Shown: positions 7,524-48,139 of the stretch, piece after piece | Layout: every line of letters starts with the position of its first letter | Position numbering within the stretch: the first letter of the stretch is position 1 | From: an uncultured Saprospiraceae bacterium | Lineage (GTDB): Bacteria > Bacteroidota > Bacteroidia > Chitinophagales > Saprospiraceae | Direction: 5' to 3' | NCBI GenBank assembly: GCA_937959115.1 | Contig: CALGAW010000010.1 | Span: 63,357 to 127,356 of the forward strand | DNA length: 64,000 nt | The notes under the pieces: generated by a model | Seen by the model: the letters and a program-made list of their open reading frames with translations, nothing else | What the model was told of the DNA's origin: nothing | The model's database searches: none | Translations under genes and position numbers: made by a program

Positions 7524-10262
7524 CTAATCACAGCCATCAATAAAAGCATCAAGCACACTCCCCATCTTAGCATCAAAACCGGGCTTTAATTCAATCACCT
7601 GACCAGCATCAAAGTCAACCGTAGTGCCTGACTGTATCTGTCCATTGGAGATAATCAGCTGTCCAGTTTCAAAGTAACCAGATAGATCAGGATTGCTTAA
7701 AAACAAGTTAAACCCTTCACAGTCACAAGCTACCGTTGCTTTCGCACAAGGAGAGCTGCCAAACGGCGCAACATAGCGCACATAGTAGTCCGCATCCCCA
7801 TCAATCATAACCGAATTTGGGTTTGAGAGCGCGATTCCTCCACATTTCCCTTTATAATATTTAAGCACGCCCACCCCATGGCCATTTCCACCAATTCCAG
7901 ATAAGGAAACCGAAGTACCAGCGCATGCACCAGGATCGGAAATCACTAATTCAGTTGGCGCTTTAAGTAATTCTTCGAAAATCCAATGAGAATGTGCACC
8001 TCCATTGTAGGGCCAAATAATGATGTTTGCACCGTTGTTGGTACTTTCTCCACTTACATTTATGTATTTAGAAGGAACATGCTTGGGTGCCATTCGGAAG
8101 GCACCACCACCAACAGATTCCAGCTTAAACTGCTGGTTGGCTGCGGACAATCCTGTATATTGTACAATTGAGGCACCATTCGCCGTACTAGCACCGCTAA
8201 CATCCAATTGAAAATCATTGTAAACTGGACTGATCGTATAAAAGCCGGTAAGATTTTGCTCCACCTGGAATTTCATATTCCCTTGATTAGCATATTGCCA
8301 TTGTTCAATATTTCCTCCACTAGCGTTGGAAGATCCGTTTACAGACATATACTTATTGGAATGAACAGCTTTGATTTGGTACACTCCATCTGCGATTTGA
8401 ACGGTTGGTGTCACTGGCTCAAACAGCCATTTAAAGTTGTCGGTATCTTCATCAGGACGCTGTTTTACAATTGCTCCATTTGAGTTGGAAGCTGGATAGA
8501 TCGCCATAGTCTTATCACTATGTTTGGCAATGATCTTGAAGGAACCGTCTTCCATTGGCTGTAGCAGAAACCGTTGACTGTCGTCTCCATAATCTGAATA
8601 TTGCTTTAAATAGGCACCATTTGCAGTCGATTGTCCTGAAATGGACCAAGCTAACCCATTAAACTTTGGGCTGATCATATAGTCAAACCCTCTTTTCTTT
8701 ACTTCAAAAACAAAGTTATCTCCTCCATTATCTAACCACTGAACAATGTTCGTATTATTTGCTTGAGATAAGCCTGAAACTGCAATATGCTTCTGGCTTT
8801 GTTTGTTACGAATTTTATACATTCCATCTGCTAGTACAGTCTTAGGAGGATTGGCAACTACATTAATAACCAAGGTTGAAATTGTATTCGAAGGTGCATT
8901 ATAATTTAACGCTCCATTCGTACCTAACTTTGTATACGTATTGTGATTATTGTTTGCATTCGTCCTCACCACCGTAACTGGATCCCCTTCATAACAAAAC
9001 TGAGTCAAATCAAAGTCAAGCGTTTTTTGAGCACTTGTACGATTCACATGTACGATTACTAACTCTTTATTATCCGGACTAAGAGCAGCAACTGCTTTAT
9101 CATCACTCGTATAAATAATTTGATATCCTGGTTTTATAAACTTCGAAAAGTGTTTTCTTACATGATAGCTTTTCCTTTTTGTTAAGGATGTTCCATTTTG
9201 CGTAAGCGTATAAAACCCCCAAACAGAAGACGTGCTTGCTGCTTGCCAGTCAATCCAAGCATTGACATTGGCAATTCGTAAATCGGTAATGACTCGTTCT
9301 GCCATAAACAAATGGTTATCGAGCCCAGTAATTGGACCAATATACAATGGACCAGATTCTGACTGATACAATTTCAACCCTCTTTCTTGCACAAATCCTG
9401 ATATTCCGGCCTTGTGTTCTCCTTCGTAGCTATGTGTACTGATTTGCTTAATTTTGTCAAATATCCGATCTCCATATTGATATTGGTTAATGTCATCCCA
9501 AGTATGAGTGTAGCTAGTTTCATCTGGGCCACTAAGCCCACAATATCCAAGCATTCCCTTTGTCTGTAATTGGGTATAAACCTCTTCAATGATTGCCATT
9601 TGCTGATTTGCAAGGATACCACATCCTTCTTGGTTTCCACCAAACCCCCAATAGCCTGAGCTGGGTTCATTTGTAGGAGTGATGGTATTAAATGTGATTC
9701 CTAGATGATCATGATAATGTTTCACGATATCAGTAAGGAAATCTGCAAAATCATCTTCAAATCCTGATTTTAGATTGGGTGCAGCATTATGGTTTCCACT
9801 TGTACATCCACTTATTGTCATCCAATGAGGTGGGCTGTTGGATTGGGCGTCTAGAATCAGATTTGGATTTCGTTGTAACAGTTCCTGTAAAATCTTACGT
9901 TGGCTCGCATTCGCATTCCAATTATATCCGGATGAAGCACTTGACTTATACGAATCAATATCTCCAGAGTCCCATCTAAAGTGATTTGCTGTTGTTCCAC
10001 TATGCACTGCAGGGTTATCACCACCATGAATGTTATATCGAAAAATATTAAAATTCAGCTCATTAGGATCAGTCAAATCATCACAAATCTTGTCAATTTC
10101 AGATTGTGGGTAGTCACCGACCAGATTGGCCCACCAAGATAAAGAGGCACCCCATCCATCAAACTTCTGCATTCGGATGTTAGGATCTACGGTGATCGTT
10201 TGAGCAGAAATTGTGCAGCACCAAAAAACGATCACAGTTAATACAACTGACTTGTGATACAT
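7524..10262 (-). CDS. Secreted GH30-family glycoside hydrolase with three ricin-B (beta-trefoil, QxW) lectin repeats and a Cys-rich C-terminal domain
   Basis: A signal peptide is present. The GH30-like N-terminus reads 'QKFDGWGASLSWWAN'. QxW repeats follow ('IVQWLDNGGDN', 'IEQWQYANQGN', 'IVQYTGLSAANQQF', 'IIIWPYNGGAHSHW'). The C-terminus 'GFDAKMGSVLDAFIDGCD' is not a recognisable T9SS CTD. Confidence 0.75.
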   Translation of the reverse strand: MYHKSVVLTVIVFWCCTISAQTITVDPNIRMQKFDGWGASLSWWANLVGDYPQSEIDKICDDLTDPNELNFNIFRYNIHGGDNPAVHSGTTANHFRWDSGDIDSYKSSASSGYNWNANASQRKILQELLQRNPNLILDAQSNSPPHWMTISGCTSGNHNAAPNLKSGFEDDFADFLTDIVKHYHDHLGITFNTITPTNEPSSGYWGFGGNQEGCGILANQQMAIIEEVYTQLQTKGMLGYCGLSGPDETSYTHTWDDINQYQYGDRIFDKIKQISTHSYEGEHKAGISGFVQERGLKLYQSESGPLYIGPITGLDNHLFMAERVITDLRIANVNAWIDWQAASTSSVWGFYTLTQNGTSLTKRKSYHVRKHFSKFIKPGYQIIYTSDDKAVAALSPDNKELVIVHVNRTSAQKTLDFDLTQFCYEGDPVTVVRTNANNNHNTYTKLGTNGALNYNAPSNTISTLVINVVANPPKTVLADGMYKIRNKQSQKHIAVSGLSQANNTNIVQWLDNGGDNFVFEVKKRGFDYMISPKFNGLAWSISGQSTANGAYLKQYSDYGDDSQRFLLQPMEDGSFKIIAKHSDKTMAIYPASNSNGAIVKQRPDEDTDNFKWLFEPVTPTVQIADGVYQIKAVHSNKYMSVNGSSNASGGNIEQWQYANQGNMKFQVEQNLTGFYTISPVYNDFQLDVSGASTANGASIVQYTGLSAANQQFKLESVGGGAFRMAPKHVPSKYINVSGESTNNGANIIIWPYNGGAHSHWIFEELLKAPTELVISDPGACAGTSVSLSGIGGNGHGVGVLKYYKGKCGGIALSNPNSVMIDGDADYYVRYVAPFGSSPCAKATVACDCEGFNLFLSNPDLSGYFETGQLIISNGQIQSGTTVDFDAGQVIELKPGFDAKMGSVLDAFIDGCD

Positions 10263-12494: not shown

Positions 12495-13592
12495 ATGATA
12501 GGATGGCAATTTAAAGAATATGTTCCTGATGAAGAAGAAGGTTCTATTTTTGAGCAACTACTCAAACTCTTTAAGGATATCCTCATCTACACAAGTGGTG
12601 ATGTCAATGAAGCACTTTCTTGGCTTAACCAAATAGATAACGAGCATAACATCACCAACGATGAGTACGGAATGGCAGACTTCATTCAAGACTTAATCGA
12701 CAAAGGATACATCGACAATCCCGATCCTCAGAACCCAGGTTTTAGACCAACCAAGAAAATAGAAATCGCGCTCCGTCAACAAGCCTTAGAGGATATTTTT
12801 GGATTGCTTAAAAAGTCAAAACGAGGCAATCATAATACTAACTTTACAGGTAACGGTGATGAAAACACCTCGGATAGGCGCCCTTATCAATTTGGTGATC
12901 GGTTAGACAACATTGCGATGTCTGATTCTCTCAAAAATGCTTATATCAATCACGGCCTAGACGAATTTAGACTTACGCAAGATGATTTGGAAGTACGGGA
13001 AACCTACTACCAAAGTCAAATGAGCACAGTCTTAATGATTGATATTTCTCATAGTATGATATTGTACGGCGAAGATCGGATTACGCCAGCAAAGAAAGTA
13101 GCAATGGCATTAGCTCAGCTAATCCAGACTAGGTATCCGAAAGACACGCTTGACATTTTGGTTTTTGGCAACGATGCTTGGCAAATTGAGGTAAAGGATC
13201 TCCCCTATTTACAAGTTGGGCCTTATCACACTAATACTGTTGCTGGCCTTGAGCTTGCAATGGATCTGCTACGCCGTCGTCGAAATCCTAACAAGCAGAT
13301 TTTTATGATTACAGATGGTAAACCTACTTGTATCAAGAAAGGTAAGAAGTATTATAAAAACAGTTGGGGACTAGATCGGCAAATCATTCGACGAACACTC
13401 AATCTTGCTACTCGATGTCGAAAAATTGATATCCCTATCACCACATTCATGATCGCAAAAGATCCATATCTAGTCGATTTTGTAGAGCAATTTACCCAAG
13501 CAAATAACGGTAAAGCCTTTTACAGTAGCCTCCAAGGTTTAGGAGAATTCATTTTTATGGATTATAAGAAAAACAAGAACAGACGGCGATAA
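12495..13592 (+). CDS. von Willebrand factor A (VWA) domain protein
   Basis: The MIDAS motif 'VLMIDISHS' and a later '…ITDGKPT' fit a VWA fold. Confidence 0.7.
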   Translation: MIGWQFKEYVPDEEEGSIFEQLLKLFKDILIYTSGDVNEALSWLNQIDNEHNITNDEYGMADFIQDLIDKGYIDNPDPQNPGFRPTKKIEIALRQQALEDIFGLLKKSKRGNHNTNFTGNGDENTSDRRPYQFGDRLDNIAMSDSLKNAYINHGLDEFRLTQDDLEVRETYYQSQMSTVLMIDISHSMILYGEDRITPAKKVAMALAQLIQTRYPKDTLDILVFGNDAWQIEVKDLPYLQVGPYHTNTVAGLELAMDLLRRRRNPNKQIFMITDGKPTCIKKGKKYYKNSWGLDRQIIRRTLNLATRCRKIDIPITTFMIAKDPYLVDFVEQFTQANNGKAFYSSLQGLGEFIFMDYKKNKNRRR

Positions 13593-13985
13593 TTATTAAT
13601 GTTTAGTATTAGAATGTCCTTAATCGTCTAGGTGCAACAGTTATCTATTTCAACTCCCCAGATCGACTTATTTACTTAATTTGAACGACAGACGTCGGAA
13701 GCGTTTTATAACTCAGCCTGCCTTTAGTCGTGTAGCAGGCAGGCCAATGGAGGAACCCTGTGGTAAGGAAAGCACAAACGCTGAACACTGGAAACGTTTT
13801 ATCAAGCTACAAGCATTATTATCTTTAAAGCCGTAAGGATTCTTAGATTATTGATTATGAGGTATGAATTCTTTTCTTTAAATTTAAGATATTATTCGAA
13901 TCCTCTAGAATAATAGAATGTATTCTACCAGAATATTTTCAGTAAAACTCCTCTGTTCAATCAAGATTATTAAACCAAATTGTCT

Positions 13986-16900
13986 ATGAAAACTAAACTA
14001 TTTTTCTTGACAGTAATGTGCTATTTAAGCACTTACTCAACAATATCTGCACAAGTGTGTGATTGTAACGTTTCACAAGTAAAAAACAACACTGTCCAAC
14101 CCTGCACAACCACAATTGGAACAGTGGTCAATGTTTCTACTGCAAGTCAATTCAGGCAAGCCATCAATCAAGCAAATGGCAGTGGTGGAAACATGACAAT
14201 ACTAATGGCAGATGGCGTGTACCAGGTCGCAAACCTTAGTTCTTACCCCTACATTACAGCAAGTAACATTGTGATCCGTAGCCAAAGTGGGAACAGAGAT
14301 GCCGTCATTCTAGAAGGAACTGGGATGTTAGATGTCGATCCAGCTACAGTGATCGGATTGAGCTTCCAAGGAAATAATAGCGTAGTTGCGGACTTGACCA
14401 TTCGTAATATGGGCAACCATGCTATTTCAGTTAATGGTGATGAATTGTATGTGCACAACGTCCGATTTGTAGACATCTATCAACAAATGATAAAAGGAAC
14501 AAGTTCGGGAGATGGATCTGATAATGGAAGAATTCAGTGTTCTTTGTTTGAATATACGGGAGGAATCGGCCCCAATTGGTACATTGGAGGAATTGATGTC
14601 CACAAAGGCGATGACTGGATTATCAGAGACAACGTGTTCAGAGATATAGCGTCTCCATCTATCTCAACAGCTGAACATGCAGTACACTTTTGGCGATCAG
14701 GGTCCAACATCACCGTTGAACGAAATGAAATTGTAAACTGTGACCGAGGCATTGGTTTTGGACTTGGAGATGGCCCAGCAAATGGACAAAATGGTGGCAT
14801 TATCCGAAACAACACTATTTATAACAATGGAAACGATCAATTCCACGATGTTGGTATTGGTTTAGAATCTTGTCCGAATACCAAAGTGTATAACAACACA
14901 ATTCACATTGAACATCAAAATGCAATTGAATATAGATGGACAACTACGACAAATGTTGATATTGCAAACAATCTTACGAATAAACCAATCACTTCTCGAA
15001 ATGGAGGAGCTGCAACTGTTTATTCAAATTATGTACAAGCAACTGCTAGCTGGTTTGTCAATCCCGCAATTGGCGATCTAAGGCTTTCTGGAAGCCCTGG
15101 TGCAGTGATAGACCAAGGAACAACACTAGCAGACGTAACGGTTGATTTAGACCAAACAGCACGCCCTAGTGGCGCAGGATATGACCTAGGAGCTTATGAG
15201 GTAGGCAACCAGCCACCTCCACCTTCAACTCCTAATTGTAACTGTACAGTGCAACAAGTAAAAACGAACACAGTACAACCCTGCAACTATACCATCGGCA
15301 CTGTAGTAAATGTTTCTAATGCTGCTCAGTTTAGACAAGCGATCAACCAAGCAAATAGTACTGGAGGAAACATGACGATCCTAATTGCTGATGGGGTGCA
15401 TCGAATTGCTGATGTCAATTCCTATCCTTATGTTACGGCAAGCAACATTGTCATTAGAAGTGCTAGCGGTAATAGAAATGCATGTATCTTAGAAGGCGAT
15501 GGCATGGTGGACAACAATCCAACCACTGTGAACGGGTTTTACTTTGTAGGCGACAACAATGTCGTCGCTGACTTGACCATTCGAAATGTAGGGAATCATG
15601 GCATTCAAACTGATGGTGACTACCTCTATGTCCATAATGTCAGATTTGTTGACCTATATGAGCAAATGATTAAGGGATCAAGTGGTGGCGATGGTTCTGA
15701 TAATGGTCAAGTGCAATGTTCTTTGTTTGAATATACGGCTGGAATTGGCCCGAATTGGTACATTGGAGGAATTGATGTCCATGAAGGAGATAACTGGCTT
15801 ATTCGCGACAATGTATTTAGAGATATTGCTTCTCCTTCCTTTGCAATCGCAGAACACGCTGTTCACTTCTGGCGGACAGGCTCAAACATTACGGTAGAAC
15901 GAAATGAAATTGTAAACTGTGATAGAGGGATTGGCTTTGGACTAGGAAACGATCCTGCAAATGGAATTGTTGGAGGAATTATTCGAAACAATACAATTTA
16001 CAATGAGGGTGTTGATCCTTTCAATGATGTAGGGATCGGTTTAGAGCATTGCCCAGATACAAAAATCTATAACAATACGGTCTTCGTACAAAGTTTCAGA
16101 GCGATCGAGTACCGATTTCCAGCGACAACGAATGTAGACATTGCAAACAACTTGACAAATAAGGTAATTGGACCTAGAGATGGCGGTACCGCAAATGTAT
16201 ATTCCAATAATCAACAAGCACAAGGAAGTTGGTTTGTCGATCTTGCAAATGGCGATTTAAGGCTTTCAGGAAGCCCTACAGCGGTTGTAGACCAAGGCGT
16301 AACACTAGCAGACGTAACGGTTGATTTAGATCAAACACCACGCCCCAATGGTGGCGGGTATGATTTGGGTGCACATGAGACAGGGCAAACAGCAGGACCA
16401 ACTGAAGTTGTATTAAAGGTAGAATTGGAAGGAGCGCTTTTTGCAAACAATCAGTATTTGTTTGAAATGCGAAATGATCTCTTTCTAGCTGGATTACTGC
16501 CTGGACAAGCCCCAGTCTCTCCTACTGTTCCTCCAACACCTCAAGGACATCCATATCAAGGACCACCTTGGAACTATAGCGGTACTGAAGGCGGAAACTG
16601 GACAGATACAGATTATTTATCTATTGCCAACCAGACAGGACAGCAACCAATAGACTGGATTCTGGTTAGTTTTAGAAGTGGCATAGCGAACTCAACAGAA
16701 ATTACTAGAGTAGCGGCTTTACTTTTACAGAATGGAACCGTTTATTTTCCTAGTAAAAGTGTATTTAATCAGCCTTTTTCCGTTCCTGTCTATATCGTAG
16801 TGGAGCATAGAAATCATTTAGCGGTGATGTCTGCTTCAGCAGTTCCTACAGTAAATGGTGTACTAACGCATGATTTCAGCTTAGGCAATAGTTACACGGG

Positions 16901-17144
16901 CGGTGGTTTTGGCCAAAAGGAAATCACCCCTGGCCGTTGGGTAATGTATGGTGGAGATGGTGATCAAGAAACAGATGGGCCTGGCTATGAAATTACTGGG
17001 AAAGACAGGATTCTTTGGAGTCAGGAAAATGGGAATTTTGCCTTGTATAACAATAGTGATTTTACAATGGATTTAGACATTACTGGATTCGATAAAGTCT
17101 TTTGGTCATTAAACAATGGTATTTTCTCCAATATTCAACGATAA
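13986..17144 (+). CDS. Secreted protein with two tandem right-handed parallel beta-helix (pectin-lyase-fold) domains plus a ~250-aa C-terminal module shared with the next gene
   Basis: A signal peptide is present. Residues ~25-410 and ~425-805 are ~65% identical repeats, each opening with 'C(D/N)C…VQPC…IGTVVNVS' and rich in 'NNTIYNNG'-type PbH1 turns. They are joined by the linker 'GNQPPPPSTP'. Confidence 0.75.
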   Translation: MKTKLFFLTVMCYLSTYSTISAQVCDCNVSQVKNNTVQPCTTTIGTVVNVSTASQFRQAINQANGSGGNMTILMADGVYQVANLSSYPYITASNIVIRSQSGNRDAVILEGTGMLDVDPATVIGLSFQGNNSVVADLTIRNMGNHAISVNGDELYVHNVRFVDIYQQMIKGTSSGDGSDNGRIQCSLFEYTGGIGPNWYIGGIDVHKGDDWIIRDNVFRDIASPSISTAEHAVHFWRSGSNITVERNEIVNCDRGIGFGLGDGPANGQNGGIIRNNTIYNNGNDQFHDVGIGLESCPNTKVYNNTIHIEHQNAIEYRWTTTTNVDIANNLTNKPITSRNGGAATVYSNYVQATASWFVNPAIGDLRLSGSPGAVIDQGTTLADVTVDLDQTARPSGAGYDLGAYEVGNQPPPPSTPNCNCTVQQVKTNTVQPCNYTIGTVVNVSNAAQFRQAINQANSTGGNMTILIADGVHRIADVNSYPYVTASNIVIRSASGNRNACILEGDGMVDNNPTTVNGFYFVGDNNVVADLTIRNVGNHGIQTDGDYLYVHNVRFVDLYEQMIKGSSGGDGSDNGQVQCSLFEYTAGIGPNWYIGGIDVHEGDNWLIRDNVFRDIASPSFAIAEHAVHFWRTGSNITVERNEIVNCDRGIGFGLGNDPANGIVGGIIRNNTIYNEGVDPFNDVGIGLEHCPDTKIYNNTVFVQSFRAIEYRFPATTNVDIANNLTNKVIGPRDGGTANVYSNNQQAQGSWFVDLANGDLRLSGSPTAVVDQGVTLADVTVDLDQTPRPNGGGYDLGAHETGQTAGPTEVVLKVELEGALFANNQYLFEMRNDLFLAGLLPGQAPVSPTVPPTPQGHPYQGPPWNYSGTEGGNWTDTDYLSIANQTGQQPIDWILVSFRSGIANSTEITRVAALLLQNGTVYFPSKSVFNQPFSVPVYIVVEHRNHLAVMSASAVPTVNGVLTHDFSLGNSYTGGGFGQKEITPGRWVMYGGDGDQETDGPGYEITGKDRILWSQENGNFALYNNSDFTMDLDITGFDKVFWSLNNGIFSNIQR

Positions 17145-17279
17145 TAGTTTTCATTAATAATGATAGACAATATTAAATTAACGACTAACTTTATGGACGA
17201 TTTCATTTTCAAAAGGGTTCAAAAACAATTAAACAATAATGAAATGAATTCCTGCTTGAACATTAATTTACAGACTATT

Positions 17280-20200
17280 ATGAAAAAAACATTCTTTGTT
17301 TTTATACTAATTGGATTCCTACTCTCAAACGTACTAGGAAATACGGTTACTTATAACGGTACAAATACAATAGTTCCAAATCCAGAAAAAGGATTGTACC
17401 AATATACCGCTGTTTACACTTCTAACTATACGCCATTAACGGTAGCCGAAGTGCAAAGTGCGCGGACGAATAAAGACATTACACTCATCTTTCGATACTT
17501 TATTCTTGATAATTTCAAAACTGGCCCTATTGACAATGCAACACTCAATAAAATTGAGCAGGATTTGCTTGCAATGCGCAATGGTGGAGCAAAAGGGATC
17601 ATTCGATTTTCATACATCAATACTTGGAATGGAAGTTCACAAGGACCATTTGGCGATGCAAGTAAAGCAGTCGTTTTGCAACACATTGACCAGTTGACTC
17701 CAATTCTACAGAATTATAGTGATGTGATTGCTACGTTACAAGCAGGTTTTATCGGTATTTGGGGTGAATGGTTTTATTCTGATTATTTCCAACCAGCTTC
17801 GACAACACAAGGCAGAATTGACCGAAAAGAGGTATTAGATAAGTTGCTAGATGTGATGCCAACAAACAGAATGGTGTCTCACCGATATCCAGAAGGAAAA
17901 GCGCAAATGTATGGGGTTTCAGTTCCTGGAGGTGCTATTGGACTCAGTGATGCTTATAGTGGAAGTGCTCTGAGCAGAATCGCCTTCCATAACGATTGTT
18001 TTCTGGTCTCAGCAAATGACTATACTTACGATAACAATACAAACGGACGAGCATATGCTGCTCAGGAATCAGACTTTTATGTGATGGGAGGCGAGTCGTG
18101 TGGTACGAGTAGCTTCTCCAATTGTACAAACGCGATTAGTGATTTGGAAACTTATAACTGGTCTTATCTCAATGATTATTACCATCCCGCAGTTATGTCA
18201 CAATGGCAAAATGAAGGCTGTTATGATGAAGTGGTTCGTAGATTAGGCTACCGATTTCGCCTAATCAACTCAACCGTTTCACCTTCTGTAGAAACAAGTC
18301 AGAATGTTGACATCACGATTGAAATGGCGAACGATGGCTTTGCACGACCATACAATCCTAGGAATGTGGAGGTCGTTTTCCGAAGCCAAGCTGATCAAAG
18401 TGAGTATACGTTTTCTATTGTCCCCCAAGGACAAGACGCTCGCCTTTTGTTACCAGCACATGGTCTTACAAAGACGTTGACTGCTTCCATTCCCGCTTCA
18501 GGATTACCAGTTGGAGATTATGATCTATTCTTGAATCTTTCAGATCCTGAATCAACCTTAAGCAACAATCCAAACTATAGCATTCGGACTGCAAATACTG
18601 GACTGTGGGAAGGAACTACGGGTTACAATGCTTTGCAAAACCCAGTAACAATAACGCAAGGAGGAAATCCTCAAAACCCAACGGTAACCTACAATGGATC
18701 AAATGCTATCGTACAAAATCCGGAGAAGGGACTGTATCGATATACGGATACGTATGCTTCCAATTACAACCCGCTAACACTTGCTGAAGTACAGTCTATT
18801 AGAAACGAGGATATTACATTAGTATTTAGATACTTTATCCTCGATAACTTTAAAACTGGGCCTATTGACAATGCGACTTTAACTAAGATCGAACAAGATT
18901 TTACAAACATGAGAAATGGTGGGGTAAAAGGCATCATTCGATTTTCATACATTAATACTTGGAATGGAAGCTCTCAAGGCCCGTTTGGTGATGCTAGTAA
19001 AGCAATCGTCTTACAGCATATCGACCAACTGACTCCAATTCTTCAAGCAAACAGTGATGTAATTGCTACATTACAAGCAGGTTTTATTGGTATTTGGGGA
19101 GAATGGTTTTATTCTGATTATTTCCAACCAGCCTCTACTACACAAGGAAGAATCGATCGAAAAGAGGTTTTAGATAAGTTACTAGACATCATGCCGACCA
19201 ACAGAATGGTTTCACACCGTTATCCAGAAGGGAAAGCTCAAATGTATCAATTAACGATTCCTGATGATTCAATCACAATCAATGATGCATATAGTGGTAG
19301 TAATTTGAGTAGAATCGCATTTCATAGTGATTGTTTTCTTGTGTCTGCGAATGACTATACCTTTAGCGACAACGTAAAGGGACGTCAGTACGCAGCTGGA
19401 GAAAGTCAATACTACGTAATGGGTGGTGAGTCTTGCGGAACGAGTAGCTTTTCAAATTGTACAAATGCACTAAGTGATCTGGAAGATTATCATTGGTCTT
19501 ATATCAATGATGGCTACCACCCGGCTGTATTGGCTCAATGGCAAACTGAAGGCTGTTTTGATGAAGTGGTGAGACGATTGGGCTATCGGTTTAGGCTAAT
19601 CAACTCTACCATTACGCAAACCGTATCTGGAAATCAGAACATTGATGTCTCCATAGAAATGGCAAATGATGGCTTTTCTCGCCCTTACAATCCTAGGAAC
19701 GTCAATCTAGTGTTTAGAAGTCAAGCTGACCAGAGTGAGTACTCTTTTTCAATTGTTCCTCAAGGTCAGGACGCTCGGCTATGGTTGCCCGCACATGGTG
19801 TAACAAAGACATTGAGTGCTGCTATTCCTGCTTCTGGATTACCGAATGGAGATTATGATGTATTTTTAAACTTAAACGATCCAGAAACAAGCCTATCCAA
19901 CAACCCTAACTTCAGTATACGTACTGCGAACACTGGGCTTTGGGAGGCATCGACTGGCTACAATGATTTGCAAACAGTTGTGACCGTTTCTGGAGGAGAT
20001 AATCTTGCCGTATCTGCTTGGTTGGAAGGCGCGCTATACGTTAGTAACAATCAGTATGCTACCACAATGCGTACGGACCTTTTTGACGCAGGTCTATTGC
20101 CCGGTCAAACGCCTGCTGGTGGCACGGCAACTCCTGCAGGCCAACCGTACTCAATTGCTCCTTGGAATTATAATGGGACAGAAGGCGCTAACTGGACGGA

Positions 20201-20732
20201 TACCGATTATCAAGCTGTCGTTTCACAAACGGGACAAAAGCCCGTAGACTGGGTGCTAATTAGCTTTAGAACGTCTATTACCAAGGCATCACAGGTTGCA
20301 AAGACCGCAGCACTGCTTATGGAGGATGGAACGGTGTACTTTCCATCACCAGTTACCTTAAATCCACAGACTCCAGTTTACGCACTTATTGAACACCGAA
20401 ATCATTTAGGCGCCTTGAGTGCGACTGCAAATTCACCAGTAAACAATCTGTTGACGTTTGACTTTAGAACTGAAAATGGTTATATGAATGGAGGTTTTAG
20501 CCAAAAGGAGGTATCTACTGGCAGATATGCGCTTTATGGAGGTGACGGTGATCAGTTAACAGACAGTCCTGGCTATGAAATTACAGGGAAGGACCGAATA
20601 CTTTGGAGTCAGAACAATGGGCTGTTTTCTTTGTATGATGCGAGCGACTTTACTATGGACAAAGATATTAGTGGGTTTGATCGGGTTTTCTGGTCCGCGA
20701 ATAACGGTATTTTTTCTAATGTGGAGCGGTAA
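17280..20732 (+). CDS. Secreted protein with two tandem DUF4874/DUF4832-like (putative glycoside-hydrolase-like) domains plus the same shared C-terminal module
   Basis: The likely start is 'MKKTFFVFILIGFLLSNVLG' (signal peptide). The repeats 'VTYNG(T/S)N…NPEKGLY(Q/R)YT…FRYFILDNFKTGPIDNATL…GFIGIWGEWFYSDYFQP' occur twice. The domain-family assignment is from memory and uncertain. Confidence 0.65.
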   Translation: MKKTFFVFILIGFLLSNVLGNTVTYNGTNTIVPNPEKGLYQYTAVYTSNYTPLTVAEVQSARTNKDITLIFRYFILDNFKTGPIDNATLNKIEQDLLAMRNGGAKGIIRFSYINTWNGSSQGPFGDASKAVVLQHIDQLTPILQNYSDVIATLQAGFIGIWGEWFYSDYFQPASTTQGRIDRKEVLDKLLDVMPTNRMVSHRYPEGKAQMYGVSVPGGAIGLSDAYSGSALSRIAFHNDCFLVSANDYTYDNNTNGRAYAAQESDFYVMGGESCGTSSFSNCTNAISDLETYNWSYLNDYYHPAVMSQWQNEGCYDEVVRRLGYRFRLINSTVSPSVETSQNVDITIEMANDGFARPYNPRNVEVVFRSQADQSEYTFSIVPQGQDARLLLPAHGLTKTLTASIPASGLPVGDYDLFLNLSDPESTLSNNPNYSIRTANTGLWEGTTGYNALQNPVTITQGGNPQNPTVTYNGSNAIVQNPEKGLYRYTDTYASNYNPLTLAEVQSIRNEDITLVFRYFILDNFKTGPIDNATLTKIEQDFTNMRNGGVKGIIRFSYINTWNGSSQGPFGDASKAIVLQHIDQLTPILQANSDVIATLQAGFIGIWGEWFYSDYFQPASTTQGRIDRKEVLDKLLDIMPTNRMVSHRYPEGKAQMYQLTIPDDSITINDAYSGSNLSRIAFHSDCFLVSANDYTFSDNVKGRQYAAGESQYYVMGGESCGTSSFSNCTNALSDLEDYHWSYINDGYHPAVLAQWQTEGCFDEVVRRLGYRFRLINSTITQTVSGNQNIDVSIEMANDGFSRPYNPRNVNLVFRSQADQSEYSFSIVPQGQDARLWLPAHGVTKTLSAAIPASGLPNGDYDVFLNLNDPETSLSNNPNFSIRTANTGLWEASTGYNDLQTVVTVSGGDNLAVSAWLEGALYVSNNQYATTMRTDLFDAGLLPGQTPAGGTATPAGQPYSIAPWNYNGTEGANWTDTDYQAVVSQTGQKPVDWVLISFRTSITKASQVAKTAALLMEDGTVYFPSPVTLNPQTPVYALIEHRNHLGALSATANSPVNNLLTFDFRTENGYMNGGFSQKEVSTGRYALYGGDGDQLTDSPGYEITGKDRILWSQNNGLFSLYDASDFTMDKDISGFDRVFWSANNGIFSNVER

Positions 20733-23884: not shown

Positions 23885-25219
23885 TCATTGTATTAAGCTC
23901 TTACAGTATTTCAAGGCAGTATCTTCATTTTTCAATATGTCTGAGATACTAGGCTTTATTTCGTAATCAGGACTGATTCCTTTGTTTTTTGGTAAATACT
24001 CAACGTTGGATTCAAATGTTCTCGTTGCTACAAAAGGAGTTATACTTGTATTTGCCAGTGTATGTGATTTAACGGTGGCATTACATCTGTAGGTCGCTCC
24101 AGTTTCTTGACCAACGAATATTCCGAATTTACCCTCTTTAATTAGGGCACAAAGTTGTCCAGTTGTTGATGCACATTTTCCATTAATCAAAATATATGGT
24201 TTTCCTTTGAATCGATTAGGGTTAAGTCCTATTTCTTTTTGCAAATCCAGATAGTTGAATGTGCCGGTTTTATAATATTGAAAAGGTTTGTCAGCAATGT
24301 GTTGTAACAAATAGGCACCGCAGTATGGATCACCTCCACCATTATTTCTTAAATCTATAATTAGATTTTCAATTTGTTTTTTGTTGATATCGACAAAACA
24401 ACTGTCAATAAACTCCTTAAACGTTTCAAAATTTTCTCTGTAGTAATAGAAACTTCTTATAGTAACTATAGCAACATTATTTTCGGTTTCATAACACAAA
24501 TTATTTACGCATGTTTCTTGATTATTTGCTTCTTCATAGCTATCAAGTTGCTTTAAAACAGTTGAATTTGACTTACCATCTTTTAAATATTCAATTTCAT
24601 ATTTGTTGGTAAATTTGAATACAAATGCTGCGTATTCCATAAAACTCTGATTGATATATTCTTCTTTAAAACTCAAATTATTTGCATCTGAGGAAATATG
24701 TTTAAACATTTCGGTTTTTAATTCCTTAACACCCATCCCGTTTATTTTCAAAATCTCACTACCTTTTGAAAGGCTAGCCGCATTTTCCAATGGGTCGGTT
24801 ACAAATAACTGATTGTCGATATAATTTACTGTCAATGGGAATAGAAGAAAATCGGGTAAAAAATAAGTTAACCCAAGTGTAGGAACGACAGTATGTCCGC
24901 AACCAACTTCGGCTACTAGAGAACGGCATAACCAAATAAATTCTCCAATTTTGAGTTTATCTTCAATTTGGTTCTTTTTCTTTTCTATTAATACAGCGAA
25001 GTCTTTTTTCGAAATGTACTCATTCAATTGAGGGTGGTTGTCTTTGAGGATGTTGACAAATTGATTGAAATCTTGAATGTATTTTTCTTTTGAAAATGTT
25101 GTTAAGATGCTTAGTCTTTCAATGTCTTCGTTTATGATTTGTGAGTTTGATTCTGAACTGTTTTGGTTGCAACTTAGAAATGTGAGTAGAATTATTATAT
25201 ATATTATTTTGTTAATCAT
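23885..25219 (-). CDS. S41 family (tail-specific/C-terminal processing) peptidase with a lipoprotein-type signal
   Basis: 'LIIDLRNNGGGDPYCGAYLLQHI' is the S41 motif. The N-terminus carries a 'LSC' lipobox. Confidence 0.8.
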   Translation of the reverse strand: MINKIIYIIILLTFLSCNQNSSESNSQIINEDIERLSILTTFSKEKYIQDFNQFVNILKDNHPQLNEYISKKDFAVLIEKKKNQIEDKLKIGEFIWLCRSLVAEVGCGHTVVPTLGLTYFLPDFLLFPLTVNYIDNQLFVTDPLENAASLSKGSEILKINGMGVKELKTEMFKHISSDANNLSFKEEYINQSFMEYAAFVFKFTNKYEIEYLKDGKSNSTVLKQLDSYEEANNQETCVNNLCYETENNVAIVTIRSFYYYRENFETFKEFIDSCFVDINKKQIENLIIDLRNNGGGDPYCGAYLLQHIADKPFQYYKTGTFNYLDLQKEIGLNPNRFKGKPYILINGKCASTTGQLCALIKEGKFGIFVGQETGATYRCNATVKSHTLANTSITPFVATRTFESNVEYLPKNKGISPDYEIKPSISDILKNEDTALKYCKSLIQ

Positions 25220-25361
25220 CTCTTTTTTTGTCCTAGTTACATGCGGCGTGCTGACGAAGGAAGCATGATCGTCATGTCACATGTAATGTGCTGCCCCTGT
25301 TACACTCTGTGGGCTTTATATGATTTTCAATAAATGCCTTACAGAATGTTTCAATATTTAA

Positions 25362-25553
25362 TCAATCGTTTCTTAGAAATAGCGCTTCATCTGAATCTTT
25401 AATTAATTTAGAAAATTTTAATCTGATTTTTTGGATTAGAGAAAGCTTTTTAGAATCGGATTCTTGGTTATTTCTAACATCTTTTATTTCCTTTTCTCTT
25501 TGTTCCTTTAGTGCTCTGATATATTCGTTTTTACCTCCGCTATGTAATTGCAT
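25362..25553 (-). CDS. Small hypothetical protein (63 aa, Lys/Glu-rich)
   Basis: This is the only ORF in an otherwise non-coding AT-rich stretch at the island edge. Nothing else supports it. Confidence 0.2.
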   Translation of the reverse strand: MQLHSGGKNEYIRALKEQREKEIKDVRNNQESDSKKLSLIQKIRLKFSKLIKDSDEALFLRND

Positions 25554-25914
25554 ATTGATTAATGTTTATACGTAATTTTTAGTATTTGTAAAATAGTCTT
25601 TTTTCAGAAAATAAACAATTTCACTCTTATGTCTACCTGTTTTCGAATTTCTTTGCAAGTTTCAATTTATCCAAATTGTTTGATTAAGGAAAAGACTCAT
25701 ATTCCCTTTTTTCTGATGCGCTCATTCAATGTAGTTTCCAGATTTTGATTGATGTTCTTTTCATATTAAATCCTAAGTGAAGTTTGTGATTGATTTCAAC
25801 TTGTGGCCTTTTTGGCTTTATTTAACGGCCAACTTTCTTAACGTTTCTATCATTCGTTTTTCTTTCCATTTCGTCTGATATTAGTTGTGTAATGTAAATC
25901 ATTCTGTAGTATTT

Positions 25915-26277
25915 TTATTCAGAGTAGTTTACGATTGCTTTAACAACCTTTTTGTTGTCATTAAATATCATTAATTCAGCAGATTTTTTATTTGTTGCTG
26001 TATTTATATAATAGATAGTAATACTATTAACTCCGATTAATACATTAATAATTTCAAAGTGTAAATTAGGGTTTGATTCGAGTCCAATATTCCAATATTT
26101 TCTGACATTATCTTTTCCAATTACGATTCCATTAGTTTCAGGAAGTCTTTTTAAAGCAAGTGGACTCTCAATCGTAAAATCATCAGTATAATGAGATAAT
26201 ATTTTTTCGAGATTATGAGAATTCCAATCTTTTGTCCAATTTTCGGAGAACTGTTTAGCGAAATCTATGGTTATCAT
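25915..26277 (-). CDS. SnoaL-like / NTF2-like small protein
   Basis: 'FAKQFSENWTKDWNSHNLEKILSHYTDDFTIESP' fits the SnoaL fold. The track's N-terminal extension to 26352 is generated by the CATATG inside repeat copy A, so the start is probably the internal Met. Confidence 0.5.
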   Translation of the reverse strand: MITIDFAKQFSENWTKDWNSHNLEKILSHYTDDFTIESPLALKRLPETNGIVIGKDNVRKYWNIGLESNPNLHFEIINVLIGVNSITIYYINTATNKKSAELMIFNDNKKVVKAIVNYSE

Positions 26278-26302
26278 ATTTTGTTGTTTTGAGCTTGTAG
26301 AG

Positions 26303-26363
26303 AACGTTTCGCATATGCGACGGCATAACCGAATGGGAAGGCTGGACGTCATATGCTTTTGTT
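26303..26363. repeat. Direct repeat copy A (~61 bp, internally palindromic: CGCATATGCG … GCATATGCGACG/CGTCATATGC)
   Basis: It is ~87% identical to copy B at 27555-27615 and in the same orientation. It sits 4 nt 3' of the Fic stop codon. Confidence 0.75.
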
Positions 26364-26367
26364 CGCT

Positions 26368-27444
26368 TTAGTCTTCTTTCCTATCCTTATCACTAATCAC
26401 ATAAATTGTTGCCCTTGCTTTTCCAATTCTTTTTACTACTCCTTCATCCGACAAATACTTCATATCCTTTTTTATAGTAGCTGAAGTGTAGTCTGTTATT
26501 GATGTCGTTATATCGCTAATTTTCACCGGTTCATTTTCTTCAATAAATTTCACCAATTCCTTTTGCCTTTCATTCAAGTAACTTTTCTTTTTCTTTATCT
26601 TAGCGTATCTATCCTCCAATTTATTTATCGTTGCTTCCAGTGTTTCTAAAAAAAACAGAATCCATTGATTAATAATTTCTTTCTTCGTTCCCCGATTTTT
26701 CTGAGCACTCATTAGTGCTTTATAGTATTCCTTTTTTTTCTTTTCTATTTCAATTTCCATTGAGGCATATCGCATAAAATCATACCCTTGTTTCAATAGC
26801 AATAAGGTTGTTAATAACCTTGAAAGCCTTCCATTTCCATCTTGATATGGATGGATTGATAAAAATTCATACACGAAAGTTGCAATAATTATTAATGGGT
26901 GTAATTCTTCATTTTCTAAATTCTTGTTTGCCCAACCAATCAAACTTTCCATTTCTCCTTTTACCAAAAAGGGATCAGTTGTATTGAAAATTATTTTTTG
27001 ACGCCCACCAGGATAATTTGCTACTACTTTATTTGATAATTTCTTGTAATTACCTCTATGACTTTCATCTTTTGAACTTACCTGCAATAATGACTTATGA
27101 AGATGATGGATATGATTTTCCTTTAGGTCTATTGCATCATAAGAATCCAAAATTATATTTAGTACCTCATAATATCCAAATACTTCTTGCTCATCTCTTG
27201 TTTTAAATGAAGTAATTTTTACGGCGTTGATCAGATTTTTTACTTCCTCATCAGTTAATGTTGAACCCTCAATTCTTGTTGACGATCCAATGCTTTCAAT
27301 TGTGGCTATTTGCTTTAATTCTTTAAGATAAATCGATTCTTTAACTTCTAGTCCCGTCCATTTCCCTCTAAATGAATCTATAAAGGCTATCTTCCTTATT
27401 ATTTGCTGATTGGTTTTAAAATCGAATGTTAACTTGGATTCCAT
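26368..27444 (-). CDS. Fic family protein (AMPylase), class II with an N-terminal inhibitory helix
   Basis: 'HPYQDGNGRLSRLL' is the Fic motif HPFx(D/E)GNGR. 'SSTRIEGS' matches the (S/T)xxxE(G/N) inhibitory motif. The C-terminus is wHTH-like. The track's TTG start at 27480 lies inside the upstream tandem repeats, so ATG 27444 is preferred. Confidence 0.8.
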   Translation of the reverse strand: MESKLTFDFKTNQQIIRKIAFIDSFRGKWTGLEVKESIYLKELKQIATIESIGSSTRIEGSTLTDEEVKNLINAVKITSFKTRDEQEVFGYYEVLNIILDSYDAIDLKENHIHHLHKSLLQVSSKDESHRGNYKKLSNKVVANYPGGRQKIIFNTTDPFLVKGEMESLIGWANKNLENEELHPLIIIATFVYEFLSIHPYQDGNGRLSRLLTTLLLLKQGYDFMRYASMEIEIEKKKKEYYKALMSAQKNRGTKKEIINQWILFFLETLEATINKLEDRYAKIKKKKSYLNERQKELVKFIEENEPVKISDITTSITDYTSATIKKDMKYLSDEGVVKRIGKARATIYVISDKDRKED

Positions 27445-27461
27445 TACAAAATATTTGATAT

Positions 27462-27528
27462 TTATCTGATTTTTATCCAAAAATAAACTTAATTATTGAA
27501 TTATCTGATTCTTATCCGATTTTTATCC
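27462..27528. repeat. Short tandem direct repeats TTATCTGATT(T/C)TTATCC / GATTTTTATCC (three or four units) upstream of Fic
   Basis: Units lie at 27462-27478, 27501-27517 and 27518-27528, with a degenerate fourth unit. Confidence 0.5.
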
Positions 27529-27554
27529 GATTATTTTTCTTATAGATTGAAGGC

Positions 27555-27615
27555 AACGGTTCGCATATGCGCCTGCCTGACCGAATGGGAGGGTTGGACG
27601 TCATATGCTTTTGTT
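27555..27615. repeat. Direct repeat copy B (~61 bp); it supplies the last four codons and the stop of the pAgo-associated gene
   Basis: The reverse complement of 27601-27615 is 'AACAAAAGCATATGA', encoding N-K-S-I-stop. Confidence 0.75.
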
Positions 27616-28758
27616 AGGTGGAGTTTTTCTCATGTTTAAAAATAGGTGATAAACTTCTATTGGCATCTGGTTGTAAAGAAAAGTTCCTATTGCAATTTTA
27701 ATGTTAGTGAATATTGGAAAATTTGCCGTACTATCGATAATGAGCTTTTCTTGAAATTCTGAAGAATAGTCAAACTCTTGTATGAACGTTAAATATCTTT
27801 GCCAAATGTCATTGAAATTTGAATTGTTTACATATACTACTGCATAGTTTCTTGATAGACCATTTGGGTCATAGTTGAGAGTCAATTTATTTAAGTGCTT
27901 AGATATATATTCTGTTTTAATAGATGATATTACAAAAGCTTCGATTATCGAAAGAGGATATTTTTCTTCTTTTGTAAATACTTTTAAATCCAATTCACCA
28001 AAAGTATTACCTGTACCAGAAACTCCTCTTTGACTTTGATTCTCTACAGTAAAATTCATTGACAGCATTGAGTGTAAAACACTATTGTATTGATCTTCAT
28101 TATTATTAAATAGTCTGTGTTTACTTTGAATTTCTCTTGTTGAAAAAAGGACTGCTTCTAATAATTCTTTCTTATCTTTTTCATATTGAAGAACTTGATT
28201 ATTCTTGAATTCAAGAAGCAACAGTAAGTGTATAATGTCATCTAAATCAAAATTGGCAGGGTATTGCAAGTCATTATAGCTATCCTTTAAGAATCTCTTT
28301 TTTAGAAGTTTGGTTTCGAAGTTCTCTTTGTTGTTGCCAGAAAGATCCTGAATAAATTGACTTTCATATTCGGAAAATATTTTCGAAATGAGAAATTTTA
28401 CTCTTATTGATTTATGTTCAAACCATTCATTGATTAACGACTGATATCTAAAATCATTTTCATTTTTGAACAATAGAGATATACCTATGATATGGAAAAC
28501 AGAAATTGACTTTTTAATGATAGGGTTACTCAGTTGGCTATATATTTCATCAAACTTAATTTCAGGAGAATTAATGCTTAAAAAACCATAAGCGGCTGAC
28601 TTTTCCAAAAAGCCTTCAAAAGAATCGATAATTGACTCAATTTGAGAATTGTCAATTATTTGTGAAATATATTGAAAGCATAAACCTCCTAAGTCAAAGT
28701 GGTTACTATACCGTGCTTGAAGTTCTGATATTTTGGAAGCCAAATTCATAGAAACCAT
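27601..28758 (-). CDS. pAgo-associated protein of unknown fold (candidate effector), translationally coupled to the upstream Argonaute
   Basis: It overlaps the pAgo gene by 13 nt and shares its strand and AT-rich composition. I recognise no SIR2, TIR or TM signature. A weak 'ELDLKVFTKEEK' stretch could be a PD-(D/E)xK-like element. Confidence 0.6.
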   Translation of the reverse strand: MVSMNLASKISELQARYSNHFDLGGLCFQYISQIIDNSQIESIIDSFEGFLEKSAAYGFLSINSPEIKFDEIYSQLSNPIIKKSISVFHIIGISLLFKNENDFRYQSLINEWFEHKSIRVKFLISKIFSEYESQFIQDLSGNNKENFETKLLKKRFLKDSYNDLQYPANFDLDDIIHLLLLLEFKNNQVLQYEKDKKELLEAVLFSTREIQSKHRLFNNNEDQYNSVLHSMLSMNFTVENQSQRGVSGTGNTFGELDLKVFTKEEKYPLSIIEAFVISSIKTEYISKHLNKLTLNYDPNGLSRNYAVVYVNNSNFNDIWQRYLTFIQEFDYSSEFQEKLIIDSTANFPIFTNIKIAIGTFLYNQMPIEVYHLFLNMRKTPPNKSI

Positions 28759-30797
28759 GGTGAATTGTCGGGCATTGAAATTTGGGACATGTAAAAGCCA
28801 TCGACTAGTTTTAGTTTACTACTCATTCGAGCCATTAATTTTGAATACTTTATACTTATTGGCGAAGCCTGCTTATTAAAACTCGAATGAGACAAGTTTG
28901 AAAAATCATAAACTTGTTTTGCTAGGTATTCCATATTTATAACATTAGATCTTCTATCAATTTCTATTTTGCAACAAGTTGAACTGTTCTTTCTTAGTGC
29001 TATAAAGGACAATACCTCATTCACATTTATATATGTACCTCTTGGTAAATCAACTAATATGGTCGATTCTTGATCAGTATTTTTTTTATATTTATTAAAT
29101 CTAAAATTATGTCCGTCGCCCACATAGACAAAAGAATATTTAAATTCAATTCCCTTAAAACCTTCGATCACACTATTCAATGCTTCTATTTCATTACTGT
29201 AACCTGGTTTCTTGAATAAATGAAAGACTAAATAGACCGCCTTAGAAGAATCTAAAATTTTAGCTTCTAGGCAATTGTTTATATTTTTTGTTAAAACAGT
29301 GTATAAATGCTTGTTATAATCTTCAACACTAGTTACAGCAGCTACATCTCCTACAAGATATTTTCCATCACCCCTAAATACGGAAGTCATTCCTATTTGA
29401 GGAATGCCTTCTTTGTCTGTTGTCGCCCCAACTCCAATGACAAGTTCATTTCGATGTTCTCCTTTTGGCTTTACAGTCCAAGCAGCCCCGCCTAATTTGG
29501 CATAAATATTTAGAGATATAGTGTGATCAGCATAATTAGTAAAACCAGATTTGTGATCTGCAATGAACTTGTTAATTTGTTGGATTTGGACTTCTTGACT
29601 ATTAATACCTCTTTTGATGAATTCAGCTTTACAAAAGTAATATGGTGATTCGTGTATAGGTAGTAATTCATGTATCTCATCAACTACAACAATCGCAAGA
29701 TCTATATCTTTCGCATTTTGAAGAATTTCTTGATAGGATTTTAAATTAGAATCTTCAATTGGAAAAGTTTCGTATTTAAAGTTTTCTTTTGGGATTCTGT
29801 AAATAGTGCAGAGTTCTTCCTGTATAGCCTTAGTGAAAGTCGCTATTTTTAGATGGTGCTCTTTAGGGAAAACCACTCCAATGGTAATATCTTTGTTTTC
29901 AAAATTATCATAAGTTGTAGGCTTGTTATATTTTATTTTACTTCGCATTGCATACTTTACAGTATTTGCAGGTGGGGTTGCATTGCGATAAAAATAATAT
30001 TTGGGATCTTCCAATTTTTCAAAACAACTTTTGTGAATTACGCTGGATTTTTTTTGAAAATCGGATTTTACAATTTTTTCAATTTTACAGCTTCCTGGTA
30101 GTTTGAAATCTGCTTTATTGGGATTGAAAAATTCTTTCACAAAAGCTTTGCAGCAAGTTATTTGAATACTTTCTTCAGTTAGCTTCTCAATTGATTTTTT
30201 TAATTTGCTAGAGTCCCCATATAAGTTGCTTATTTTATAAATGGCAGTTGAGTCAGCTCTAACTTTTCCGTTATCTAGGATTGTTAGGTTGTCAGTAGAT
30301 AGATCATTGTCATTAAATTCCTCAAGTCCCCAAGTTATCTGATGGCTGATTCCAGAGGTAATATTGAAGCCATACTTTAGTTCGTTATTAATTATTAACG
30401 AACTGAATGTTAGGTTGTAGCTTCTGTATGTGTTCAGATATGGAAAATCATTGTTTGAGATATCTACGCGATAATCAGTGATTCTAATTAGTCCAAACGA
30501 TTTTGTTATGAATAATTTTGGTTCAGAATAAAACTGATTCAACATTGATTCTGAAATGATTTTAGAAATTAGAAAGTCGTCAACACCTTTTTTAATATTT
30601 TGAGTAACTACTCTGTCAAAAGCTATGTTGCCCCATATGTAAACTTTATCTCTAAATCTCAAAAAGGTTGAGTTGTTATATTTATCTCTGAATGATTTTA
30701 GATTTTCAGGATTTCTATATTCGATTGACTGGATATCAAATGCTGAATGAGATAACTCAATTTCATGCCAGTTACTTCTTATCAATTCCTTAATCAT
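28746..30797 (-). CDS. Prokaryotic Argonaute, catalytically inactive (long-B-like) with MID and degenerate PIWI domains
   Basis: The PIWI architecture is conserved: '…ISLNIYAKLGGAAWTV' (KLGG), 'ELVIGVGATTD' (in place of IGxDVxH, first Asp to Gly), 'VYLVFHLFKK' (RDG to HLF) and 'FVYVGDGHNFRF' (in place of the QKRHHTR element). The MID domain reads 'SPYYFCKAEFIKRGINSQEV…NKF', a Y-K-Q-K-type 5'-phosphate pocket. Confidence 0.8.
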   Translation of the reverse strand: MIKELIRSNWHEIELSHSAFDIQSIEYRNPENLKSFRDKYNNSTFLRFRDKVYIWGNIAFDRVVTQNIKKGVDDFLISKIISESMLNQFYSEPKLFITKSFGLIRITDYRVDISNNDFPYLNTYRSYNLTFSSLIINNELKYGFNITSGISHQITWGLEEFNDNDLSTDNLTILDNGKVRADSTAIYKISNLYGDSSKLKKSIEKLTEESIQITCCKAFVKEFFNPNKADFKLPGSCKIEKIVKSDFQKKSSVIHKSCFEKLEDPKYYFYRNATPPANTVKYAMRSKIKYNKPTTYDNFENKDITIGVVFPKEHHLKIATFTKAIQEELCTIYRIPKENFKYETFPIEDSNLKSYQEILQNAKDIDLAIVVVDEIHELLPIHESPYYFCKAEFIKRGINSQEVQIQQINKFIADHKSGFTNYADHTISLNIYAKLGGAAWTVKPKGEHRNELVIGVGATTDKEGIPQIGMTSVFRGDGKYLVGDVAAVTSVEDYNKHLYTVLTKNINNCLEAKILDSSKAVYLVFHLFKKPGYSNEIEALNSVIEGFKGIEFKYSFVYVGDGHNFRFNKYKKNTDQESTILVDLPRGTYINVNEVLSFIALRKNSSTCCKIEIDRRSNVINMEYLAKQVYDFSNLSHSSFNKQASPISIKYSKLMARMSSKLKLVDGFYMSQISMPDNSPWFL

Positions 30798-35435: not shown

Positions 35436-35572
35436 TGAAATTGCTTTATTCAGGTTTATAAATCTTACTAAATGGTCTTCGATAAGATACAAATCTTCAA
35501 ATAATAAGCCAAAAATCTTAACCAATTTAACAAGTATCGGAAAATCTCATTTGATTTTTCTAACTTCATTCC

Positions 35573-48090: not shown

Positions 48091-48131
48091 CATCATTTCT
48101 TCACTGCGGATGTTTTTTTGCATCAAAATCG

Positions 48132-48139
48132 TATCTTTG
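48132..48139 (+). promoter_or_regulatory. -7 box TATCTTTG upstream of the 48170 start
   Basis: Matches TAnnTTTG. Confidence 0.35.

Follow-up and report, generated by a model that had tools for sequence, protein, structure and literature searches.

Two kinds of C-terminal domain are the closest described counterparts of the one reported here. The first is the dyad of X module and type II dockerin (XDoc), a cellulosome-anchoring module known from the scaffoldins CipA of C. thermocellum (PDB 2b59, 3kcp, and 5g5d) and ScaA of A. cellulolyticus (4wi0 and 4u3s), in which a C-terminal immunoglobulin (Ig)-like β-sandwich is followed by two loop-helix motifs. The second comprises the type A and type B C-terminal domains (CTDs) of type IX secretion systems (T9SS), which stand at the extreme C-terminus of diverse Sec-exported Bacteroidota proteins and occur in many copies per genome. 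Dockerin modules have also been described in organisms that do not produce cellulosomes, Bacteroidetes among them (PMC6487960). Our literature search returned nothing specific to dockerins in Saprospiraceae, or to dockerins combined with T9SS. Here, we describe two adjacent genes, gene 1 and gene 2, on a 64,000-nucleotide (nt) stretch of contig CALGAW010000010.1 (assembly GCA_937959115.1; positions 63,357 to 127,356, forward strand), which we call the window. Their products share a C-terminal tail that is predicted to fold like the first kind of domain and that stands in the position of the second.

Gene 1 (13986..17144, + strand, by ORF call) encodes 1052 amino acids and gene 2 (17280..20732, +) encodes 1150. 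Both open reading frames (ORFs) exist as a first-pass annotation of the window had described them, adjacent and on the same strand. Each product consists of a signal peptide, two copies of one module, and an XDoc-like CTD. The annotation had stated that both have signal peptides and, by direct reading, both N-termini look like Sec type I signal peptides: MKTKLFFLTVMCYLSTYSTISA with Q following in gene 1 (13986..14054, +), which has a hydrophobic h-region and no lipobox, and MKKTFFVFILIGFLLSNVLG with N following in gene 2 (17280..17339, +). In public data, protein P0115 is identical to the gene 1 product, and P0012 is the gene 2 protein with a start codon placed further upstream. We consider it probable that these are old, two-headed secreted enzymes, encoded side by side but separately evolved, which share a docking tail of XDoc-like type.

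In gene 1, the two units are directly repeated without a gap, one every 1179 nt (393 amino acids). Residues 29-412 (unit A; 14070..15221, +) and 422-805 (unit B; 15249..16400, +) are 75% identical in protein and 72% identical in DNA, and all family-invariant residues are present in each unit (48/48). The NCBIfam model choice_anch_Q (NF041518) matches gene 1 above threshold (47.1 bits; cut-off 25) in two stretches, each closing a unit. This feature is shared with known β-helix proteins that have a choice-of-anchor Q end. Unlike those proteins, the gene 1 units themselves fall short of Pfam Beta_helix (PF13229), giving only a weak match to DUF5123, and sequence and profile searches of PDB returned no relative. 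Among 30 relatives of the units (40-60% identical), 16 match Beta_helix (best E = 9.5e-12) and eight match NosD. The class proposed earlier for these ~390-residue domains is thus supported, through homologues, as modules of right-handed β-helix type.

Gene 2 has a repeat period of 1335 nt (445 amino acids) with one single-codon indel. Between unit A (amino acids 22-463; 17343..18668, +) and unit B (amino acids 468-903; 18681..19988, +), protein identity is 81% and DNA identity 75% when residues 22-463 are compared with 468-908. DUF4874 (PF16173; 291.9 bits, E = 1e-87) and DUF4832 (PF16116; 380.3 bits, E = 4e-114) each match above the gathering score in two stretches, so that gene 2 carries two full copies of each domain. 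In most proteins with this domain pair, a single unit precedes a T9SS tail, whereas gene 2 has two units followed by an XDoc-like tail. The papers retrieved mention DUF4832 and DUF4874 only in passing, as neighbors in Pel clusters and in a gene-transfer study on amphioxus.

An AlphaFold model of gene 2 unit A (predicted local distance difference test, pLDDT, 94.2; predicted template modeling score, pTM, 0.92) has a (β/α)8 barrel and a C-terminal β-sandwich. This high-confidence model indicates a TIM-barrel fold resembling that of glycoside hydrolase (GH) clan A, in line with the GH-like domains of ~430 amino acids reported in the first pass. The likeness is one of predicted fold: identity of the unit to clan GH-A enzymes (GH5, GH14, GH10, and GH42) is 7-13%, with no sequence-level relation even when a profile is used, and PDB contains no solved structure related to the unit by sequence, even with a 34-sequence profile. 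Two glutamates that are invariant in the DUF4874/DUF4832 family, within the motifs GIWGEW and GGESCG, are kept in both units (codons 17766-17768 and 18093-18095 in unit A, 19101-19103 and 19428-19430 in unit B; all +). In the model they come after strands. All 23 family-invariant residues are present in unit A and in unit B. The longest exact repeat between the units, 32 nt (17766..17797, +; second copy 19101-19132), encodes EWFYSDYFQPA around the first putative catalytic glutamate.

The annotation had called the internal copies strongly similar at the nucleotide level and concluded that they arose by recent duplication or are kept alike by ongoing gene conversion. For a DNA identity of only 72-75%, strong similarity is an overstatement. 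By the Nei-Gojobori method, the proportion of synonymous differences (pS) between units is 0.70 in gene 1 and 0.71 in gene 2, corresponding to a synonymous divergence (dS) of ~2. Nonsynonymous divergence (dN) is 0.18 and 0.13, respectively, giving dN/dS of ~0.06-0.09. Identity at third codon positions is 0.505 in gene 1 and 0.525 in gene 2. At positions where the two units share an amino acid, codon choice also agrees in 48% of cases for gene 1 and 50% for gene 2, compared with 39% expected for independent draws from the codon usage of the window and 43-45% for orthologues from different genomes. Exact runs common to both units reach at most 30 nt in gene 1 and at most 32 nt in gene 2.

The two-unit layout is also found in relatives. 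At 75% identity, P0013, the orthologue of gene 2, likewise consists of two units and this tail; P0116 and P0117, the orthologues of gene 1, are ~67% identical and also have two units. A one-residue indel specific to the A copies is common to gene 2 of the window and to the locus that encodes P0013 (L001). Because synonymous sites are near saturation, exact runs are short, and two-unit orthologues are only 67-75% identical, we read the duplications as old and their copies as maintained by purifying selection, with the remaining nucleotide similarity a residue of protein conservation. The flagged repeats are, on this evidence, ordinary old domain duplications. They also carry a caution: a DNA identity of 72-75% together with a short near-identical patch can stem entirely from protein conservation.

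The annotation had pointed to such a patch, comparing 17751-17900 with 19081-19230. Two near-identical copies of the quoted sequence do exist, but a few bases away from where they had been placed: a 53-nt motif occurs exactly twice in the window (17745-17797 and 19080-19132), the copies differ only at two degenerate positions, and none of 100 shuffled sequences contains it. The surrounding region, 17718-17867, reaches 89% nucleotide identity between the gene 2 units. Its first part, 17718-17798, covers a peptide under strict conservation, GFIGIWGEWFYSDYFQPA, in which residues with one or two codons abound. As a local gene-conversion tract, 17718-17798 was rejected: in a permutation that keeps amino-acid classes and degeneracy, its similarity is not significant (P = 0.10).

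Further observations lean toward recent duplication or conversion. The gene 2 units are 81% identical in protein within the genome but 77-78% identical to their positional orthologues. In the quartet of gene 2-type units, informative nucleotide sites group the units by genome (64) more often than by position (34) or crosswise (30), as do informative amino-acid sites (12, 8, and 2, respectively), and same-codon use is slightly higher between paralogues than between orthologues. Differences in codon usage between the two genomes could alone produce such a within-genome grouping at synonymous sites. Taken with the near-saturated synonymous sites, the short exact runs, and the presence of the same architecture in relatives that are 67-75% identical, we regard a recent duplication or ongoing conversion at an unstable, collapse-prone locus as very unlikely; the quartet leaves room for some homogenization in the distant past.

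The locus had also been described as prone to recombination and assembly collapse. Exact runs of at most 32 nt do not bear this out, and neither does an independent k-mer assembly (L086, from run ERR9287619), which has no mismatches to the window over 4506 nt (13290-17795). That assembly covers all of gene 1 and ends at 17795, inside the 32-nt exact repeat of gene 2. The repeat is the only exact one of at least 31 nt between the gene 2 units, and this end shows the point at which short-k assemblers break here. Collapse by read mapping is unlikely at a divergence of 25-28%, and efficient homologous recombination is also unlikely at such divergence. The sequence comes from a metagenome-type assembly, where assemblers may be led astray by repeats, and the two-unit structure might in principle be a false duplication or a chimera that joins two strains. 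We consider this almost certainly not the case: 25-28% of bases differ between the units, each gene has a reading frame without interruption, L086 is identical across the whole of gene 1, and orthologues with the same layout are found in other datasets, P0013 being present on four contigs from JGI, ENA, and Logan.

The two modules probably have separate histories. All six units of gene 1, P0116, and P0117 form one clade, in which the units of P0116 and P0117 cluster by position (86% and 84% identity) and those of gene 1 are ambiguous. The four gene 2-type units likewise form a clade, whose sister, P0014, has this tail but one unit only. Other tandem duplications have occurred independently, that of the β-helix unit in P0118 and those of the DUF4874/DUF4832 unit in P0015, P0017, and P0102; in each of these proteins, the paired units are each other's closest relatives. 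This repeated, independent duplication suggests that two-headed versions have been repeatedly favored.

The adjacency of the two genes is not conserved. In L001, P0013 follows the same two upstream genes as in the window, encoding AhpC-like and VWA proteins, with no gene 1 between, and P0116 lies in a different gene neighborhood. Window positions 13593-17279 correspond to L001 positions 9676-10000, the two loci being otherwise syntenic and gene 1 being absent in this closest relative. Gene 1 was thus either inserted in the lineage of the window or lost in that of L001. A scan for terminators and promoters returned fewer matches than shuffled sequences, and none between gene 1 and gene 2.

What the two proteins have in common is their tail, a shared domain of ~250 amino acids that the first-pass annotation overlooked. 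The CTD of gene 1 (16392..17141, +; 250 amino acids) comprises an N-terminal extension, an X-module-like β-sandwich, and a dockerin-like loop-helix pair, and that of gene 2 (19989..20729, +; 247 amino acids) is 59-60% identical to it over ~250 amino acids. Neither tail has a sequence match in Pfam, NCBIfam, or PDB. An exhaustive profile search nevertheless retrieved 13,579 cluster representatives (clusters at 50% identity) at E ≤ 1e-3, and 2,927 at 1e-30. A word-indexed search had given 11 relatives, a count that should not be taken for rarity; it missed the proteins of the window themselves, and its result is a sensitivity artifact. No Pfam or NCBIfam model covers the tail family in any protein tested, except for weak Dockerin_1 matches on a few divergent members.

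The tail is almost always a terminal feature of otherwise dissimilar proteins. Of 150 domain matches in the proteins listed, 139 end six or fewer residues from the C-terminus, and of 85 ORFs at Saprospiraceae loci, 83 have a tail that ends 0-6 residues ahead of the stop. Proteins that bear it range from 284 to 5082 amino acids. Across the 65 members scanned, its partner domains include adhesin repeats (cadherin-like and Big_9), S8 and M36 proteases, leucine-rich repeats (LRR), SASA esterases, β-helices, a sulfatase, and a polysaccharide lyase of family PL8. Among GTDB genomes, at least 537 loci are matched; the best 80 of these all lie in eight Saprospiraceae metagenome-assembled genomes (MAGs), with at least 16 in one MAG. 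In five family members (P0235, P0237, P0293, P0315, and P0317), a tail-like domain is internal or present in 2-5 copies per protein.

An AlphaFold model of the tail, built from a 22-sequence alignment (pLDDT 94.6, pTM 0.92), consists of an N-terminal elaboration of ~85 residues, a β-sandwich, and two loop-helix motifs. When this model was used as a Foldseek query, the top nine matches were all XDoc dyads (probability 0.97-1.0). As in those dyads, the β-sandwich X module packs directly upstream of the dockerin-like part, in which two segments of calcium loop plus helix (F-hands) follow in tandem, with an Asp-rich loop before each helix. In gene 1, the dockerin-like part occupies 16947..17141 (+), with helices at residues 203-212 and 232-241 of the CTD. 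Its second loop is canonical (D223-F-T-M-D227-L-D-I-T-G-F-D234) and has the D-x-T/N-x-D-x6-D spacing of dockerins. Both loops are canonical in the divergent family members P0150 and P0023. The isolated tail of P0023 scores above the Pfam Dockerin_1 (PF00404) threshold (27.1 bits; cut-off 22.9) over model positions 1-56 of 57, while full-length P0023 and P0057 fall below it. We thus predict that the tail has an X-module plus dockerin-like fold.

The resemblance to clostridial XDoc dyads is not complete. Identity is only 12-15%, the N-terminal elaboration is additional, and the subfamily to which the window tails belong has a five-residue insertion in loop 1 (D189..D205 in gene 1). The host is a Gram-negative member of the Bacteroidota, the proteins that bear the tail are enzymes and adhesins, not a scaffoldin, and a cohesin partner was not found. 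The tail might be a non-docking accessory that has the XDoc fold only: a calcium-stabilized module that binds carbohydrates or surface glycans. The occurrence of dockerins outside cellulosome producers is consistent with this, as is the lack of a cohesin among the window ORFs scanned. So too are the strictly conserved aromatic and proline motifs (QPY..PWNY) of the N-terminal elaboration, which XDoc lacks. Such a role is nevertheless improbable, given that the tail is also found on proteins that are not carbohydrate-active, including proteases, LRR proteins, and cadherin-like adhesins. Furthermore, to our knowledge, carbohydrate-binding modules are not normally confined to the last residues of a protein.

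The position of the tail invites comparison with T9SS sorting domains. The annotation noted that both proteins lack canonical T9SS tails, and this was upheld: neither gene 1 nor gene 2 matches a type A (PF18962/TIGR04183) or type B (PF13585/TIGR04131) model at E ≤ 0.1. As a positive control, four ORFs of the same window match PF18962 and one matches CHU_C. These five lie at 24-800, 961-3705, 33969-35525 (-), 36241-38850 (-), and 48110-48970, so that three kinds of C-terminal module coexist within 64 kb. For both catalytic modules, PF18962 stands at the C-terminal end of most homologues. The XDoc-like tail thus takes the architectural slot of a T9SS signal.

The tail might be a third, unrecognized class of T9SS signal that is recognized for export across the outer membrane, and perhaps cleaved, rather than a docking domain. 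Like T9SS CTDs, the tail stands at the extreme C-terminus of diverse Sec-exported Bacteroidota proteins in many copies per genome, exactly where homologues of both modules carry PF18962, and the range of proteins to which it is attached resembles T9SS cargo. The best 80 genome loci are all from Saprospiraceae MAGs, and the genome of the window has both type A and type B cargo. The two proteins have Sec signal peptides only, with no lipobox, and the choice-of-anchor Q domain of gene 1 is named for preceding alternative sorting signals. Yet the tail matches no T9SS CTD model, although five neighboring ORFs do. At 250 amino acids, it is ~3 times larger than T9SS CTDs and far above Por_Secre_tail (75 positions) and CHU_C (86 positions), and its fold is best explained as XDoc-like. 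No PorP/SprF-like neighbor was found in 80 tail loci. We therefore judge a T9SS signal unlikely, if somewhat less so than a purely accessory module. The docking and T9SS-signal roles are not mutually exclusive.

Our preferred explanation, that of separately evolved two-headed enzymes with a shared docking tail, can be set out as follows. Two adjacent chromosomal genes of a T9SS-bearing member of the Bacteroidota, probably of the Saprospiraceae, would have evolved separately, each giving rise to a Sec-exported, two-headed enzyme. In each gene, the catalytic module would have been duplicated in tandem before the split from relatives that are now 67-75% identical, and both copies would since have been kept intact by purifying selection. 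The tail, occupying the place held by a T9SS sorting domain in homologues, may then dock the enzymes in a Ca2+-dependent manner onto a cohesin-like or other surface receptor.

Several observations weigh against this explanation. Sequence and profile searches returned no solved structure related to either putative enzyme, and the assignment of the gene 1 units to the right-handed β-helix class is based on homologues rather than on a model of the window protein. The first calcium loop of the window tails carries an insertion, and neither the full-length window proteins nor their isolated 70-residue tails match Pfam Dockerin_1 at its gathering score. A Pfam scan of 33 window ORFs other than the two genes (from a total of 38 with at least 150 amino acids) found no Cohesin domain. 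In 80 tail loci, no gene recurs beside the tail genes, only an antisense frame of the tail and other long cargo. The quartet counts might reflect some old homogenization, or compositional attraction at synonymous sites; any past gene conversion has left a faint trace at most. Finally, a Sec signal alone leaves the crossing of the Gram-negative outer membrane unexplained, and it is this gap that keeps the T9SS-signal alternative alive.

On a larger scale, the tail could mark a cohesin-dockerin-like (or T9SS-coupled) surface-docking system in Saprospiraceae, in which each genome would supply dozens of secreted proteins (enzymes, proteases, and adhesins) for cellulosome-style display, by way of an XDoc-type module, on a receptor at a Gram-negative outer membrane. 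We offer this broader proposal tentatively, as less likely than not. The tail is nonetheless of more note than the repeats, being the mark of a very large family, expanded in Saprospiraceae, that the libraries tested do not model. If the tail does serve as a signal for docking or sorting, it would define the way in which a major polymer-degrading group of environmental Bacteroidota displays its extracellular enzymes. It would also provide a simple sequence tag for predicting surface proteomes, and the question of its receptor would be directly testable.

The history of the tails appears to differ from that of the modules to which they are attached. The gene 1 tail is 60-62% identical to the tails of gene 2 and P0013 but 43-46% identical to those of its own orthologues (P0116/P0117), and it has two insertions in common with the gene 2-type tails. 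These sequence relationships suggest either an old tail swap or lineage-specific types of tail. Synonymous sites between the gene 1 and gene 2 tails are saturated (pS 0.79-0.92), and the idea that gene 2 recently passed its tail to gene 1 was rejected on this ground. As speculation drawn from few genomes, the likeness of tails within a lineage would fit co-evolution with a lineage-specific partner.

Two other large ORFs of the window, for proteins of secreted type, have no XDoc-like tail: 7524-10262 (-), with a GH30-like domain and six ricin-type lectin repeats, and 39113-42373 (-), an M36 fungalysin that also has DUF11 and MAM-like domains. Elsewhere in the window, the stretch 24000-30000 includes an ORF with a Fic domain (26368-27480, -) and a further two that overlap each other and have no Pfam match (27601-28758 and 28746-30797, both -). 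This stretch has a GC content of 0.31, compared with ~0.39 in the rest of the window, and may be a foreign island.

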